From Candidatus Woesearchaeota archaeon (GTDB taxonomy: Archaea; Nanobdellota; Nanobdellia; Woesearchaeales; UBA10216), in assembly GCA_016184345.1 (NCBI GenBank), contig JACPCV010000005.1, forward strand, positions 4,634 through 68,633: a DNA stretch of 64,000 bases. The letters run 5' to 3'. Both the position numbers and the translations under genes were made by a program. The notes beneath the pieces are model-generated. The model was given only the letters and a program-made list of their open reading frames with translations. It searched no databases and was not told the DNA's origin. Below are positions 19,118 to 55,630 of this stretch, piece after piece. Within the stretch, counting starts at the first letter, position 1, and every line of letters begins with the position of its first letter.

Positions 19118-19232
19118 CGGACCTGGTGGGATTCGAACCCACGACCTTCAGCTTTCCGCGTTTTCTGATTGACCTCTTTCCTAAAGAGGTCATTAGAAGG
19201 CTGTCGCTCTGTCCGGGCTGAGCTACAGGTCC
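19118..19232 (-). tRNA. tRNA-Arg(TCT) with 40-nt intron at 37/38 (19154-19193)
   Basis: GGACCTG/CAGGTCC acceptor, CT-TCT-A anticodon loop, GGTTCGAATCC T-arm; weak BHB. Confidence 0.9.
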
Positions 19233-19368
19233 ACACGCCCGGAATACCCTGCCCGCTTTTTAAAGTTGTTGCAAAATAGTAAAAGGCACAAATCTCATGA
19301 TAATTAATTGTGTCGTTTTCTAAAGTCAAGAAACCTTTATAAAAAGCCGTTTATGTCAGCACCCTTGC

Positions 19369-19441
19369 GCACAGGTAGCCAAGCGGCCAAGGCGATCGCC
19401 TGCAGAGCGATTATTCGGGGGTTCGAGTCCCCCCCTGTGCT
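19369..19441 (+). tRNA. tRNA-Cys(GCA), intron-less
   Basis: GCACAGG/CCTGTGC, U73, ATCGC-CTGCAGA-GCGAT. Confidence 0.95.
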
Positions 19442-19605
19442 CTCATCCTTTTTTTCAGCTTCGGGATTACCCAATAAGCCGTTATCGCTGCAACAACCGT
19501 CACGAGCCAGAACGCTGCAGGCTTTACTATCTTAAACAGGAGCCCTATGAAATTAAGAATAACTACTGCTGCCAAAACCAGGCTGAGAACTTTTGCAAGG
19601 CTCAT
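19411..19605 (-). CDS. Small two-helix membrane protein; 3' end overlaps tRNA-Cys antisense
   Basis: Two hydrophobic segments; ATGA coupling to upstream MazG-like gene. Confidence 0.6.
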   Translation of the reverse strand: MSLAKVLSLVLAAVVILNFIGLLFKIVKPAAFWLVTVVAAITAYWVIPKLKKRMRAQGGTRTPE

Positions 19606-19973
19606 CGCTTTATCCTCTCTTTTTCTTTTGCCTCAGCCCAGACCCTTTCCTCTTCCTCAAGCGTTACCTTTCTGCCTGTGACAAGAAAGGGCTTCCTGCG
19701 CTTCATCTTCTCAAGAACGCTGCTAATAGATTCCTCAGGCTTAAACCAGCCCTGCTTCTCGGCTATGAGCATGACCATAAGCGTATCCCAGAACAGGTCG
19801 CCAAGCTCTGCCTTCAGGCTCTCACTGTCGCCCTTGCCAACAGCTTCAAGCACTTCATCTGATTCGGAAGCAAGCTGGGCAGAATAGCTCTTTACGGTCT
19901 GCATGTTAGCCCAGGGAGACTCAGCAAGGGCCTTCCTTGCCAGCTTCACAAATTCGTCAAGTTCCTTTTCCAT
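19602..19973 (-). CDS. MazG-like nucleotide pyrophosphohydrolase
   Basis: SESDEVLEA, ELGDLFW, KMKRRKP. Confidence 0.88.
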   Translation of the reverse strand: MEKELDEFVKLARKALAESPWANMQTVKSYSAQLASESDEVLEAVGKGDSESLKAELGDLFWDTLMVMLIAEKQGWFKPEESISSVLEKMKRRKPFLVTGRKVTLEEEERVWAEAKEKERIKR

Positions 19974-19984
19974 ATTTTCTCCCG

Positions 19985-20689
19985 TTACGGCTGTAATCGC
20001 ACAATGTCCCTGAGCTTTTTCAGCTTTCCGATTACCCTCCTGGTATCTTCAAAGTAAAGCTTTGCGTACGTTTCTGCAACGTTGGTTAACCCTTCAATGT
20101 ACGGCCGCAGCCCTTTGCCCTGTTTCTGCAGCTTCGAAGTGTCACGGACTCCTTCAAGGTCTACCTTGACGGTCCTTACGCCATTCCTCCTGCAATAAAA
20201 GTTTAGTACGGCCTCAAGCCCATACTTGGCCGAGCGCGGATCAGCGCAAACAGCCCTGAGGTGCCTTGTGGGCAGTGCGCGCTCGCCGCTAAGCAACAGA
20301 ATCATCAGCTTTTTCTTTAGCACCTTGCTCCCGAAATGCCAGTCCTTGTCCCTGAGCCCTATTGTCATTATGTTGGGGTTTTTCTTCAGGGGGTCCAGCA
20401 GGGCAGCAACGCTGTCGTGGCGCAGCCCATTAAGGTCGGCATCGCACATGAGTACAAACTTTGTGGTAACATGCGCCAAGGCCATCCTCACTGATTCGCC
20501 CTTGCCGGCGTTCTTCCTGTTAGAGATGAGCTGCACGTTAAACTGTTTTATGATTGCCTCGCTCCCGTCTGTTGAGCCGTCATTCACAACTATGACCTTG
20601 CGTATTTCTGGCGAAGTCGTGAGAACTTTAAGCACGTTGCCGACTGTCCTCTCCTCGTTATAGCATGGCACAATTGCAGTGGCGTTCAT
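19985..20689 (-). CDS. Glycosyltransferase family 2
   Basis: IVPCYNEE, VNDGSTDG, NAGKGES, CDADL. Confidence 0.92.
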   Translation of the reverse strand: MNATAIVPCYNEERTVGNVLKVLTTSPEIRKVIVVNDGSTDGSEAIIKQFNVQLISNRKNAGKGESVRMALAHVTTKFVLMCDADLNGLRHDSVAALLDPLKKNPNIMTIGLRDKDWHFGSKVLKKKLMILLLSGERALPTRHLRAVCADPRSAKYGLEAVLNFYCRRNGVRTVKVDLEGVRDTSKLQKQGKGLRPYIEGLTNVAETYAKLYFEDTRRVIGKLKKLRDIVRLQP

Positions 20690-20718
20690 TTTTGGATTAG
20701 CCTGCTCTTAAAATGAAA

Positions 20719-53411: not shown

Positions 53412-54159
53412 AAAGCCGCTGGTAGTTGCCGTACAATATGTTGGCTACTTCTTCTGCATCCATGCCCTTTATCGCTGCAATCCTTGCCACCGTTGCGGCT
53501 ATGTGGCTGGGCTCACTTTTCCCATCCTTTTCAGCTGCAAGGTAAGGGGCATCAGTTTCTGTCAGAAGCTTTGACAGCGGCAACTCCCTCGCTATGGCCT
53601 GGAAGTGGCTGCTCCTCCGGATATTTGTCGGGATGGTGACGTAAAAGCCAGCTTCAGCAGCTGCCTTAACTAGTTTCATGCTGCCGTGAAACGCATGCAG
53701 CACAACGCGCTTGCAGCCAAGGCGCATGAGCGTTTCCACAACGCCCTTCTCCGCCTGCCTTGAGTGGACAATGGCAGGCTTGCCAAGCTCCTTTGCCAAT
53801 CCCAGCTGAAGCTCAAACAACCGCTGCTGTTGCCGCCTTTCCCTGTCACCCTTGGCTTCCTGGTAGTCAAGGCCAATCTCGCCCAGCGCAACAATTCTGG
53901 CCCGGCAGCTGCGGATGAAGTTCAGTTCGCCTTCAATCGCTGCTGCAGGCAGCCTTGCCGCCTCAGTCGGGTATAATCCCAATGCTGCCTTCACAACCCC
54001 AAACTGCTGCTGCAACTCAAGCGCCTTCCGGATGGATTTCGGGTCAACGCTGTTGCTGATAATCACCTTCACGCCAGCAGCTATCGCTCTTTCAACTACA
54101 GCTTTTCTTTCATTCTCACCAATGAGGTCAAGGTGAGCGTGGACGTCAGCGAGGAGCAT
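53404..54159 (-). CDS. tatD: TatD family DNase
   Basis: DVHAHLD, GEIGLDY, VHSRQAE, LHAF, TETDAPY. Confidence 0.95.
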   Translation of the reverse strand: MLLADVHAHLDLIGENERKAVVERAIAAGVKVIISNSVDPKSIRKALELQQQFGVVKAALGLYPTEAARLPAAAIEGELNFIRSCRARIVALGEIGLDYQEAKGDRERRQQQRLFELQLGLAKELGKPAIVHSRQAEKGVVETLMRLGCKRVVLHAFHGSMKLVKAAAEAGFYVTIPTNIRRSSHFQAIARELPLSKLLTETDAPYLAAEKDGKSEPSHIAATVARIAAIKGMDAEEVANILYGNYQRLFS

Positions 54160-54172
54160 TTTAGGCAAACCC

Positions 54173-55036
54173 TTACTGTCTCAAACGTTTCTTATGGACT
54201 GATAAATACCGCCTAACAAAATAATGCTTAAAACCCTCTTCACCTTTGCCAAGGGCTTTGTAGTAGGATTTCCTGTTTTTGTATTCCACAATAACCATTG
54301 GATAAAAGCTGTGCCACAATATGTGGTTCATCAGAAGCCTTCCTATCCTGCCGTTCCCGTCTCCAAAAGGATGGATTTTCTCAAAGCGGTAGTGGGCAAC
54401 AGCAGACAGGTCAACAGTGTGAAGCTTTGAGGTGTTCACAAAAGATACAAGCCCATCCATTAGCTTTTTGACATCCTGCCAGTCAGGAGCCACATAGTAG
54501 CCAACCCTGACGAGGTAATCCCGGTAAGTGCCTGCAACATCCTGCTTGGTTTCACCAAAGATTTCCTTATGCCACCTCAGCAGCAGCTCGTTTGAAATTT
54601 TCTCCTTCTTCTTAAGCATTGCCAGGAAAACTTTTGCATGAGCTTCAGTCTCCCTCACTTCCGCAAGGGGCTTGTTCGGGGATATCTTGTCATGAATAAT
54701 CTCCCTAGCTTCCTGCAAAGTTATCGTAGAGCCTTCTATGGCGTTTGTATTGTAGGTAAAGGCAATGGCAACTTCCTGCAGTTCCTTCGCCTTAATGGTT
54801 TCGGGATACCGCTCCCACTCTTTCTGAAAGCTCTCCCTGATTGCCCTGAGCTTTTCATACAGGCCTTTTTTGCTCTCAAGCTCAATCTTTGCCTTAATCT
54901 CATCAATGTTATCCGGGATTGACTTTCCAAGGTAAACTTCCCTGGTCACAACCCTGCTGCCTTCCCTGAAAGAGTGCTGCAGGTAGAAATATCCTGTCCC
55001 GCCTTTTTTCCTTGTTATAATCCTCACAAGAGCCAT
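54173..55036 (-). CDS. Fic family protein with N-terminal putative DNA-binding domain
   Basis: HPFGDGNGRIGR, TNAIEG inhibitory-type motif, N-terminal YFYLQHSFR..REVYLG. Confidence 0.93.
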   Translation of the reverse strand: MALVRIITRKKGGTGYFYLQHSFREGSRVVTREVYLGKSIPDNIDEIKAKIELESKKGLYEKLRAIRESFQKEWERYPETIKAKELQEVAIAFTYNTNAIEGSTITLQEAREIIHDKISPNKPLAEVRETEAHAKVFLAMLKKKEKISNELLLRWHKEIFGETKQDVAGTYRDYLVRVGYYVAPDWQDVKKLMDGLVSFVNTSKLHTVDLSAVAHYRFEKIHPFGDGNGRIGRLLMNHILWHSFYPMVIVEYKNRKSYYKALGKGEEGFKHYFVRRYLSVHKKRLRQ

Positions 55037-55038
55037 TA

Positions 55039-55085
55039 CCATTACAAAGTATATAAATCTTGCTATTTTCGTTAATTTGTAATGG
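55039..55085 (-). promoter_or_regulatory. 10-bp inverted repeat flanking the BRE/TATA of the Fic gene (putative operator)
   Basis: CCATTACAAA / TTTGTAATGG around AAAATAGCAAGATTTATATAC (minus strand). Confidence 0.65.
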
Positions 55086-55129
55086 TAAATCACAACCTTT
55101 AAATATTTGCCTGATGGGCCTGGTTTTCC

Positions 55130-55630
55130 ATGACAATCGCGGGCTTCGCATTTACCAAGCTTCTGGCAGAGAAGAAGGCAACAGGCAAAGGCAACATCAC
55201 AATCAACAGCAACATCTCGCTCGTTTCTGCAGAGGAGATAGACTTCGTGATGGGCCAGCAAAGGCAAAAAGGCATCAAGGTAATCTTTGACTACAAGAAC
55301 ATCTTCGAGCCGGACATCGGCACGCTGATAATCGGCGGGGAGATACTCTACCTGTCAGACCAGAAGAAGCATGACGAGCTCATGAAGCTCTGGGCAAAGC
55401 GGAAAGGGTTCTCGGACGATGTAACAGCAGAGCTCTATGACCTTGTTTCAGTCAGGTGCACGGTAGAGGCCATACACCTCTCAAGCACCATAGGGCTTCC
55501 TCCTCCGGTGCCGCTGCCAAGGTTCTCAGCAGGCAAGCCAAAACAGCATGACCTTTTTAGCGAAAAAGGTCAATCAAAAATTCAACAGGCCCAGCAGCCA
55601 CAGCCTGCCCCAAAAGGAAAAAAGGCCTAA
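55130..55630 (+). CDS. Hypothetical protein upstream of cdc48; contains an in-frame palindromic element
   Basis: 166 aa, low-complexity Gln/Pro/Lys tail. Confidence 0.75.
   Translation: MTIAGFAFTKLLAEKKATGKGNITINSNISLVSAEEIDFVMGQQRQKGIKVIFDYKNIFEPDIGTLIIGGEILYLSDQKKHDELMKLWAKRKGFSDDVTAELYDLVSVRCTVEAIHLSSTIGLPPPVPLPRFSAGKPKQHDLFSEKGQSKIQQAQQPQPAPKGKKA
55550..55580 (+). repeat. Hairpin+tail element copy within a CDS (reads DLFSEKGQSK)
   Basis: GACCTTTTT-AGCG-AAAAAGGTC-AATCAAAAA. Confidence 0.8.

Follow-up and report, generated by a model that had tools for sequence, protein, structure and literature searches.

A hairpin-plus-tail repeat family dispersed over tRNA genes, tRNA introns, spacers and reading frames in a Woesearchaeota genus

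Why should one short hairpin recur in tRNA introns, against the ends of tRNA genes, in a protein-coding frame and in an intergenic spacer of the same piece of archaeal DNA? The piece in question, called the window in the following, is a stretch of 64,000 nucleotides (C6:4634-68633) from a groundwater Woesearchaeota (DPANN) genome, G000, of 884 kb in 6 contigs, which is ~85% complete; coordinates are window positions unless a contig or locus is named. An earlier reading of the window, here called the original prediction, described eight copies of a hairpin followed by a short tail and proposed a mobile element similar to bacterial REP (repetitive extragenic palindromic) repeats. The answer which we consider probable is that the copies belong to a non-autonomous, REP/PIT-like family of dispersed DNA repeats, found at this level of similarity in one Woesearchaeota genus, and tolerated where RNA processing removes the copies.

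The unit has a size of ~36-45 nt and the composition (GCA)N-RACC-Y5-loop-R5-GGTY-N'-ATC-R5-6-ACG, and its commonest form is GCA-T-GACC-TTTTT-nnn-AAAAA-GGTC-A-ATC-AAAAAA-CG. The junction motif RRRGSTYRAYCRRAAA is found 5 times in the window, where dinucleotide shuffles predict 0.03; none of 100 shuffles reached 5. A regular-expression scan of G000 returned 50 copies, and a covariance model (R1, alignment A1) trained on 29 short copies gives ~60 full-length matches on the 884-kb genome, with E-values down to 3e-12, and does not match shuffled sequence. The forms distinguished among the copies are the following.

Type 1: GACC/GGTC or AACC/GGTT as a perfect foot, linker ATC.
Type 2: extended stem, foot GACC/GCTC with a C-C mismatch, and an ACC linker.
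Type 3: foot GACC/GTTC and an AATCC linker.
Long forms: a loop of 40-115 nt.

The C-C mismatch which the original prediction noticed in three intron copies is the one that defines type 2. The long forms are explained by the site in the ProRS gene, where the element is absent in one relative, present as a short form in another, and present in G000 as the short form with a twin-hairpin cassette in its loop; from these three states it follows that long forms are nested insertions.

Covariation was analyzed in 96 distinct copies from five genomes. The stem consists of 10 bp which covary: 97.7% of the stem cells are paired, and double-sided changes occupy 88 cells compared to 16.5 in shuffles, in agreement with the covariation originally claimed. 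At the foot pair 79 copies have GC and 16 have AU; just outside the foot, the base before RACC and the base after GGTY form UA in 73 copies, CG in 16 and AU in 6. This outermost base is the tenth stem pair, and that is why the first base of the presumed tail, the R of RAYC, seemed to covary. Foot, linker and ACG are strongly conserved. As had been stated, the loop is free in sequence; its length lies between 1 and ~115 nt.

In parallel register the tail follows the hairpin's 5' arm: 96.2% of the cells are complementary (shuffles, 84.4%), and double changes fill 45 cells, which belong to three positions. Where the arm carries a C at position i after RACC, the tail carries a G at position i after ATC (at position 1 often a C), and the arm and tail pairs found are TCTTT/AGAAA, CCTTT/GGAAA, CTTTT/GAAAA or CAAAA, TTCTT/AAGAA, TTTCTT/AAAGAA and CTCTTT/CAGAAA. 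Since the tail is parallel to the pyrimidine arm it is the mirror image of the purine arm. It had been seen as a single-stranded foot of the kind recognised by HUH enzymes, a proposal which has to be given up: the tail covaries with the stem and is better described as the third segment of a mirror repeat. T:G mismatches exceed C:A mismatches (22 vs 4), and therefore the folding constraint falls on the strand as written. The covariation is evidence for a structural constraint on the third segment, which may reflect actual triplex formation by the unit.

Other structures were considered for the same bases. An antiparallel helix between tail and 5' arm is excluded by the pair counts, only the symmetric middle position holding. 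C/D-box, H/ACA, K-turn and pseudoknot readings were rejected as well, there being no boxes and the 3-nt loops failing to covary with the ACG end. On contig C75 of G001 (L055 4860-5040) there are three identical tandem copies with a period of 53 nt, the unit of which includes a second AATCAAAAAA tail; this suggests that the array arose by slippage or unequal exchange between tails. Another duplicated tail is found at L068:8768.

The window contains exactly eight copies, and these are the ones previously named, each at or within a few bases of the position originally given; no ninth was found. The copies, with the host gene and promoter of the first of them, are:

19118..19232, minus strand: tRNA-Arg(TCT) gene (Rfam tRNA, 56 bits), hosting the copy at 19155..19197.
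~25 nt upstream of +1 of this gene: tRNA-Arg(TCT) promoter, CAACAACTTTAAAAAG.
19155..19197, minus strand: type-1 copy, the bulk of the tRNA-Arg(TCT) 37/38 intron (R1, 52.4 bits).
20851..20906, minus strand: type-2 copy which is the tRNA-Ala(CGC) 37/38 intron (R1 and orthologue comparison).
40794..40835, minus strand: type-2 copy in the tRNA-Thr(CGT) 37/38 intron.
40868..40910, plus strand: type-1 copy on the strand opposite tRNA-Thr, foot against the tRNA 5' end (R1, 43.1 bits).
42258..42302, minus strand: type-1 copy on the strand opposite tRNA-Gly(TCC), foot against the tRNA 5' end (R1, 41 bits).
42332..42387, plus strand: type-2 copy in the tRNA-Gly(TCC) 37/38 intron.
55544..55587, plus strand: in-frame type-1 copy within the C-terminal, Q/K-rich tail of a 166-aa open reading frame (ORF166; R1, 52.8 bits).
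3374..3458, plus strand: long-form copy in a 226-nt intergenic mosaic (R1, 28.5 bits).

The copy at 19155..19197(-) reads AT-GACCTCTTT-AGG-AAAGAGGTC-AATCAGAAAACG; the CGGAA behind it pairs with the anticodon loop. The one at 20851..20906(-) has the extended stem, the GACC/GCTC C-C mismatch and a GACCAAAAAG tail, the one at 40868..40910(+) an AACC/GGTT foot and a GATCGAAAAA tail, and the translated reading of the copy at 55544..55587 is QHDLFSEKGQSKI. The long form at 3374..3458 retains the foot, the pyrimidine and purine arms and a AATCAAGAAAC tail, carries two other hairpin modules inside its loop, and has paralogues at C5:193209 and C2:83042. It was originally placed inside an RNA; the copy is real, and the RNA is not what the segment looks like. 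The segment 3255-3480 (226 nt, upstream of a glmS-like gene) folds far more stably than shuffles (z = -8.8), with an 11-bp GGCGGCATGCA/TGCATGCCGCC stem closing a twin-hairpin cassette and the long-form element, and it has no Rfam match; it looks like stacked repeat modules rather than a single RNA gene.

How widely the family is spread was examined with R1 on 11 genomes of the genus, which are 67-92% complete, and on 30 genomes from 27 other genera of the family or order. Ten of the 11 genus genomes are positive, the copy numbers being 0, 3, 16, 24, 30, 36, 39, 42, 45, 60 and 102, and the 30 other genomes have 0 copies. The extremes are G001 with 102 copies, G002 with 3 and G003 with 0. A divergent hairpin that ends in a GACCAAAAAG tail occurs in G003 at least once, and the lack of copies in this genome therefore holds at the R1 level of similarity only; related divergent families may substitute for each other between species. 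The exact core occurs on 40 contigs of groundwater metagenomes, with exact matches from the Hainich wells among them; a scan of viral contigs found it on none. Other hairpin modules in G003 (L013, contig C21; L138) lie at the tRNA-Arg T-loop intron and at the tRNA-Ala 3' flank (GACCAAAAAG tail), and its ORF166 tail contains a twin-hairpin insert, which is a different module.

The evidence for movement comes from orthologous sites which are filled in one genome and empty in another. The 37/38 intron of tRNA-Arg(TCT) is 15-19 nt long and without element in G002, G003, G004 and G008; it contains type 1 in G000, type 2 in G005 and G007, and type 2 with nested hairpins in G009. In every case the unit begins right behind the 5' splice site, and the old intron keeps its 3' end, the part that pairs with the anticodon loop. 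The T-loop intron of the same tRNA is, depending on the genome, absent, element-free, or equipped with type 1 or type 2. The tRNA-Ala(CGC) gene is intron-less in G003, and elsewhere its intron is almost wholly the unit (type 1, short type 2 or long type 2). The tRNA-Pro(GGG) gene has no 37/38 intron in seven genomes including G000; in G005 and G001 there is a clean 41-nt type-1 insertion between G37 and T38, and in G007 a type 2 at the same site. Its flanks are polymorphic too: G010 and G001 have reversed copies at the 5' end, and G004 has a forward one at the 3' end. In L122 and L128 (G004, G010) tRNA-Pro-GGG has an unrelated, element-free intervening sequence in the T-stem, after CCCGGG.

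The same pattern is seen outside the tRNA genes. In ApgM of G000 a 36-nt unit stands where seven orthologues have 15 nt, a net addition of 21 nt in frame. G000 and G007 share the ORF166 copy, down to the AGCG loop, and it is absent in G002, G009, G006, G005 and G010; in G001 (L137, contig C106) the site was left unscored, the C-terminal tail region being masked and reading N. Kae1/TsaD of G001 has a 48-nt in-frame insert which is absent in G000, and several intergenic spacers are empty in G000 and filled in G001. An mRNA intron reading of the copies in coding regions was rejected: the frames stay open, the ApgM unit is 36 nt and the ProRS relative has its short form in frame.

Judged from these orthologues, copies are gained and lost between congeneric genomes. 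Insertion into a short pre-existing intron enlarges it, as tRNA-Arg shows, and insertion into an intron-less anticodon loop makes a new intron, as shown by tRNA-Pro-GGG and tRNA-Ala-CGC. Growth and gain of tRNA introns were both suggested originally, and the insertions are polymorphic between orthologues rather than fixed; together with the ~60 copies in G000 this speaks for the dispersed REP-like hairpin family that was proposed.

The preference for tRNA genes is pronounced. At least 19 of 61 copies are situated ≤40 nt from a predicted tRNA gene, where ~0.5 would be expected because predicted tRNAs with their margins cover <1% of the genome; an enrichment at tRNA genes had been suggested as a check. 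Excision followed by ARAGORN annotation recovered only 11 interrupted hosts because many tRNAs hold two or more introns, and manual reading adds further tRNA-linked copies since the predictors miss many interrupted tRNAs. In G000 all type-2 copies (9/9) are tRNA-linked, and type 2 is the only type restricted in this way; type-1 copies also occupy intergenic spacers, tRNA flanks and coding regions. Introns with the element at 37/38 are found in tRNAs for Arg, Ala, Thr, Gly, Glu, Leu and Pro, and T-loop introns contain it too.

The copies at tRNA genes obey a rule of orientation: the foot of the hairpin is turned toward the exon or gene body and the tail outward. Copies behind 5' splice sites and behind tRNA 3' ends (2-3 nt past the discriminator) are forward, and reversed copies lie against tRNA 5' ends and 3' splice sites. 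The Glu-CTC and Leu introns each contain a tail-to-tail pair of copies, one forward and one reversed, with tails that are nearly complementary. Where CATGACC adjoins a protein gene, its TGA serves in some cases as the stop codon, and its CAT in some as the start codon of a divergent gene. A replication-linked orientation bias was considered and rejected, as GC skew follows the gene strand and the contigs show no replication signal.

Could such introns be spliced? In minimum-free-energy folds the G005 Pro intron and the basal Arg introns show the anticodon stem, then a 3-nt bulge, 4-6 bp of further helix and a hairpin, with the 3' cut in the 3-nt bulge, the element hairpin beside the 5' cut and the tail on the opposite side of the internal loop. 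The 4-6 bp helix is formed between the anticodon loop and the bases just after the tail (CCGA, CGGA or GGAA). The Arg, Ala and Gly introns of G000 fold into looser motifs. The element introns are thus predicted to form a relaxed bulge-helix-bulge (BHB) or bulge-helix-loop (BHL) motif, and G000 encodes the catalytic domain of a splicing endonuclease in a 224-aa ORF (EndA, C2:95903-96163).

On the reading of a tolerated, dispersed repeat, the element consists of the hairpin (conserved foot, pyrimidine arm and purine arm), a free loop and a tail, ATC + R5-6 + ACG, mirroring the purine arm. It would be selfish and would persist where splicing, removal of leader or trailer, or tolerance of the protein neutralises it. 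In a new intron the hairpin would become the inner helix next to the 5' cut, and CGGA, CCGA or GGAA after the tail would pair with the anticodon loop and restore the relaxed BHB or BHL motif. The three-segment covariation would mean that a folded single strand, hairpin plus third strand, is required by the copying activity, and this activity would be something other than an HUH/RAYT enzyme encoded in these genomes (RAYT, REP-associated tyrosine transposase). Two empty sites which already match part of the unit, in ApgM and ProRS, hint at microhomology-guided template switching rather than cut-and-paste.

A number of points weigh against this picture. Neither a mobilising enzyme nor a consistent target-site duplication was found, so that the word "mobile" describes patterns of presence and absence only. 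Some of the gains could be losses; at tRNA-Pro the 7:3 split makes a loss the less economical reading. Different subtypes at one site may be due to gene conversion or replacement instead of independent insertion. The element introns are presumed to be spliced, and the copies in coding regions, as the simpler reading, to be translated. As to a third strand, there are 5-6 triads at most, the tail would have to cross a 5-bp foot on a 3-nt linker, which is geometrically awkward, and at position 1 a stem C-G is matched by a tail C more often than by a tail G. Purine-motif triplexes are moreover reported not to form in RNA (PMC4666352).

A more far-reaching proposal is that the hairpin with its mirror tail is the vehicle of de novo tRNA intron gain: a real three-stranded fold would be recognised by a host replication, repair or RNA-processing activity and copied beside other helices, such as acceptor-stem ends and anticodon or T loops, which would make the element an archaeal "introner" based on a natural triplex-type structure and without its own transposase. 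We put this forward tentatively and regard it as rather doubtful.

An unlikely, still serious, account does without a transposon, the copies being spread by recombination or gene conversion and by microhomology-primed template switching among copies, mostly at tRNA genes, with no dedicated enzyme. The junctions are variable, and the empty/filled pairs show no consistent target-site duplication; a possible AGCAGCAG duplication was seen once, within a CAG-rich tract. Set against a MITE, which has terminal inverted repeats and a target-site duplication of fixed length, the 10-bp hairpin arms might be taken for the inverted repeats. Some empty sites already resemble the element: the 15 nt replaced by the 36-nt unit in ApgM are tail-like (CAAAAAATC), the empty ProRS site in L035 is GCATGACCTT, the 5' end of the element, and the anticodon loop of tRNA-Ala ends in GCA, the usual 5' flank of the unit. 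Such matches would fit, as would the replacement of one subtype by another at the same site and the tails duplicated in tandem arrays. Against it stand the clean insertions without evident microhomology at tRNA-Pro G37/T38 and in Kae1, and bursts of up to 102 near-identical copies, which are more easily reconciled with an active copying mechanism. This account competes with the mechanism only and is compatible with a selfish repeat.

It is quite improbable that the element is a vertically inherited host signal, placed where it is needed, such as a processing, splicing or protein-binding motif or a promoter or terminator cassette. The strong conservation of foot, linker and ACG, and the fact that the foot always meets the boundary of an exon or gene (splice sites, 5' and 3' ends), are what one would expect from a signal. 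Oligo-T can terminate archaeal RNA polymerase, and transcription could thus stop where a tRNA 3' end runs straight into the T5 run; a T-rich tract is also found ~25-30 nt from an adjacent start codon, in both orientations. A signal of this kind should hardly vary from 0 to 102 copies among congeners, be dispensable for one and the same tRNA, lie in frame in proteins, or be missing from the same sites in sister genomes. The promoter cassette, with the T-rich tract ~25-30 nt from the start codon or tRNA +1 in both orientations, was rejected as the tRNAs have their own promoter: whether or not the element is there, a classical BRE/TATA (CAACAAC-TTTAAAWA) is present at its normal distance, ~25 nt upstream of +1, and where a reversed copy lies at the tRNA the TATA box is found further upstream. 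The analogous BoxC/PIT repeats showed neither promoter nor terminator activity (PMC4666352). Single copies may have been co-opted, for example as tRNA terminators.

The mover proposed originally was an HUH enzyme of the RAYT type. Pfam Y1_Tnp (PF01797) has 0 matches in G000 even at E≤1, and TnpB has no match there either; as the genus genomes are 67-92% complete this absence is not absolute. Y1_Tnp is found in 2 of the 11 genus genomes, G002 (two genes) and G005 (one weak match, 34 bits), and it does not follow copy number, G001 having 102 copies and no Y1 and G002 3 copies and two Y1 genes. The G005 ORF (L032 1396-1893, contig C18) encodes 165 aa, is IS200-like with an HVH motif and is situated beside tRNA-Glu(TTC); no homologue was found in G000 or in ~900 kb of related loci. 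The suggested search for a RAYT or TnpA(Y1) gene flanked by copies gave this as its lone near case, and the gene merely adjoins tRNA-Glu: the two copies ~250 nt from it are tRNA-Glu intron and flank copies which are also present in G000. The alignments contain no GTAG/CGTC tetranucleotide at the foot, which is N-RACC, usually after GCA. In IS200/IS605 elements, element-internal bases pair with flanking bases, and such pairing could in principle yield stem-tail covariation. A REP-type element moved by a RAYT or IS200-like HUH Y1 enzyme, recognising the hairpin and cutting a single-stranded tail, would agree with the short imperfect palindrome, the high copy number and the polymorphic insertions, but with the Y1 genes distributed as they are and neither tag nor TnpB present it is the least probable of the explanations.

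Which known system does the family resemble? The closest in design are the BoxC/PIT/TMECO repeats (Holder et al., 2015, PMC4666352; Hoyne et al., 2000, cited there). In vitro, oligonucleotides of these repeats fold into an intrastrand triplex (PMC4666352). Both have the class II Y-R-R order, in which the second purine segment mirrors the purine arm. Both are short dispersed repeats with loops less conserved than arms, tolerate one mismatched triad, vary strongly in copy number between close relatives, and have no known mover or function. The sequences are unrelated, A/T-rich with a GACC/GGTC foot here and CCCTCNCCC in BoxC/PIT; there are 5-6 possible triads here and 9 there, and the mirror segments are 8 nt apart here (GGTC+AATC, of which 4-5 are paired in the foot) compared to a 3-nt loop there. 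The definitions of ITxF and TMECO ask for at least 6-9 contiguous triads and a second loop of 1-6 nt (PMC4666352), and the unit lies outside them. Its host is an archaeon, and many copies are found in tRNA introns and in frame in genes, not only in intergenic regions.

With REP/REPIN sequences, which are associated with RAYT/TnpA_REP, the family shares imperfect palindromes of 20-40 nt in tens to hundreds of copies, both orientations, occasional inverted doublets (here in two tRNA introns) and strain-level polymorphism. It differs from the GTAG/CGTC-tagged super-families (PMC3733652) in having no tag or cognate RAYT, in a tail which covaries with the stem, and in copies inside tRNA genes and coding regions.

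A third comparison is with palindromic repeats in frame in conserved protein genes, apparently translated as loop or tail residues. Such are the Rickettsia palindromic elements (RPE), on which Ogata and colleagues reportedly published in 2000. The inserts in ApgM, ORF166, Kae1/TsaD and ProRS behave in the same way, being in frame and missing from orthologues. RPEs in protein genes are reviewed in PMC10969869; they are ~100-150 bp, bacterial, and unlinked to tRNA introns. The family thus behaves like REP, BoxC/PIT and RPE and is by its defining features a member of none of them, and no published description of it was found in the literature that could be searched.

For the tRNA introns the relevant comparison is the transposed groups of BHB introns in the Thermoproteales (Fujishima et al., 2010, as summarised in PMC4090602 and PMC4033280). 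According to these summaries related intron sequences recur across tRNA genes and positions there, as they do here at 37/38 and in the T-loop, which implies that intron movement is constrained by the need for a spliceable motif. "Intron transposition" was inferred in that work without a visible donor; the family described here generates the pattern so named, and by its defining features it is not one of those intron groups either. The shared hairpin-plus-tail unit differs in being found also outside tRNA genes, in flanks, spacers and coding regions, and therefore the donor pool is visible and gains can be read from empty orthologous sites.

The origin of archaeal tRNA introns is an open question; a 2026 Asgard preprint (10.64898/2026.10.13.758758) tested several routes, its conclusion being that the way in which such introns arrive is still open. 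The repeat offers a concrete and testable one, since it occurs among congeners in three states, outside tRNA genes, in pre-existing introns and as whole new introns. What is new is the parallel-register match between tail and 5' arm, mirroring the purine arm after the BoxC/PIT design, which extends the "triplex-capable" repeat type from bacteria to archaea. The orthologue comparison shows the gain and growth of introns by an identifiable donor element. Intron gain becomes something which can be followed in populations, for example in aquifer time series, and rebuilt in vitro from a pre-tRNA, the repeat and the splicing endonuclease.

Two of the tRNA genes in the window have peculiarities of their own. 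The tRNA-Arg(TCT) gene with its promoter (19118-19442) is inverted in G000 relative to its flanks; tRNA-Arg and the downstream tRNA-Cys are co-oriented in seven congeners, in some only 2 nt apart, and in G000 they diverge, with 136 nt between them. In G000 the tRNA-Ala(CGC) gene is interrupted in its 3' part (20780-20830, minus strand) from the T-arm to the acceptor strand where congeners are continuous, and the gene seems to hold at least one additional intervening sequence.

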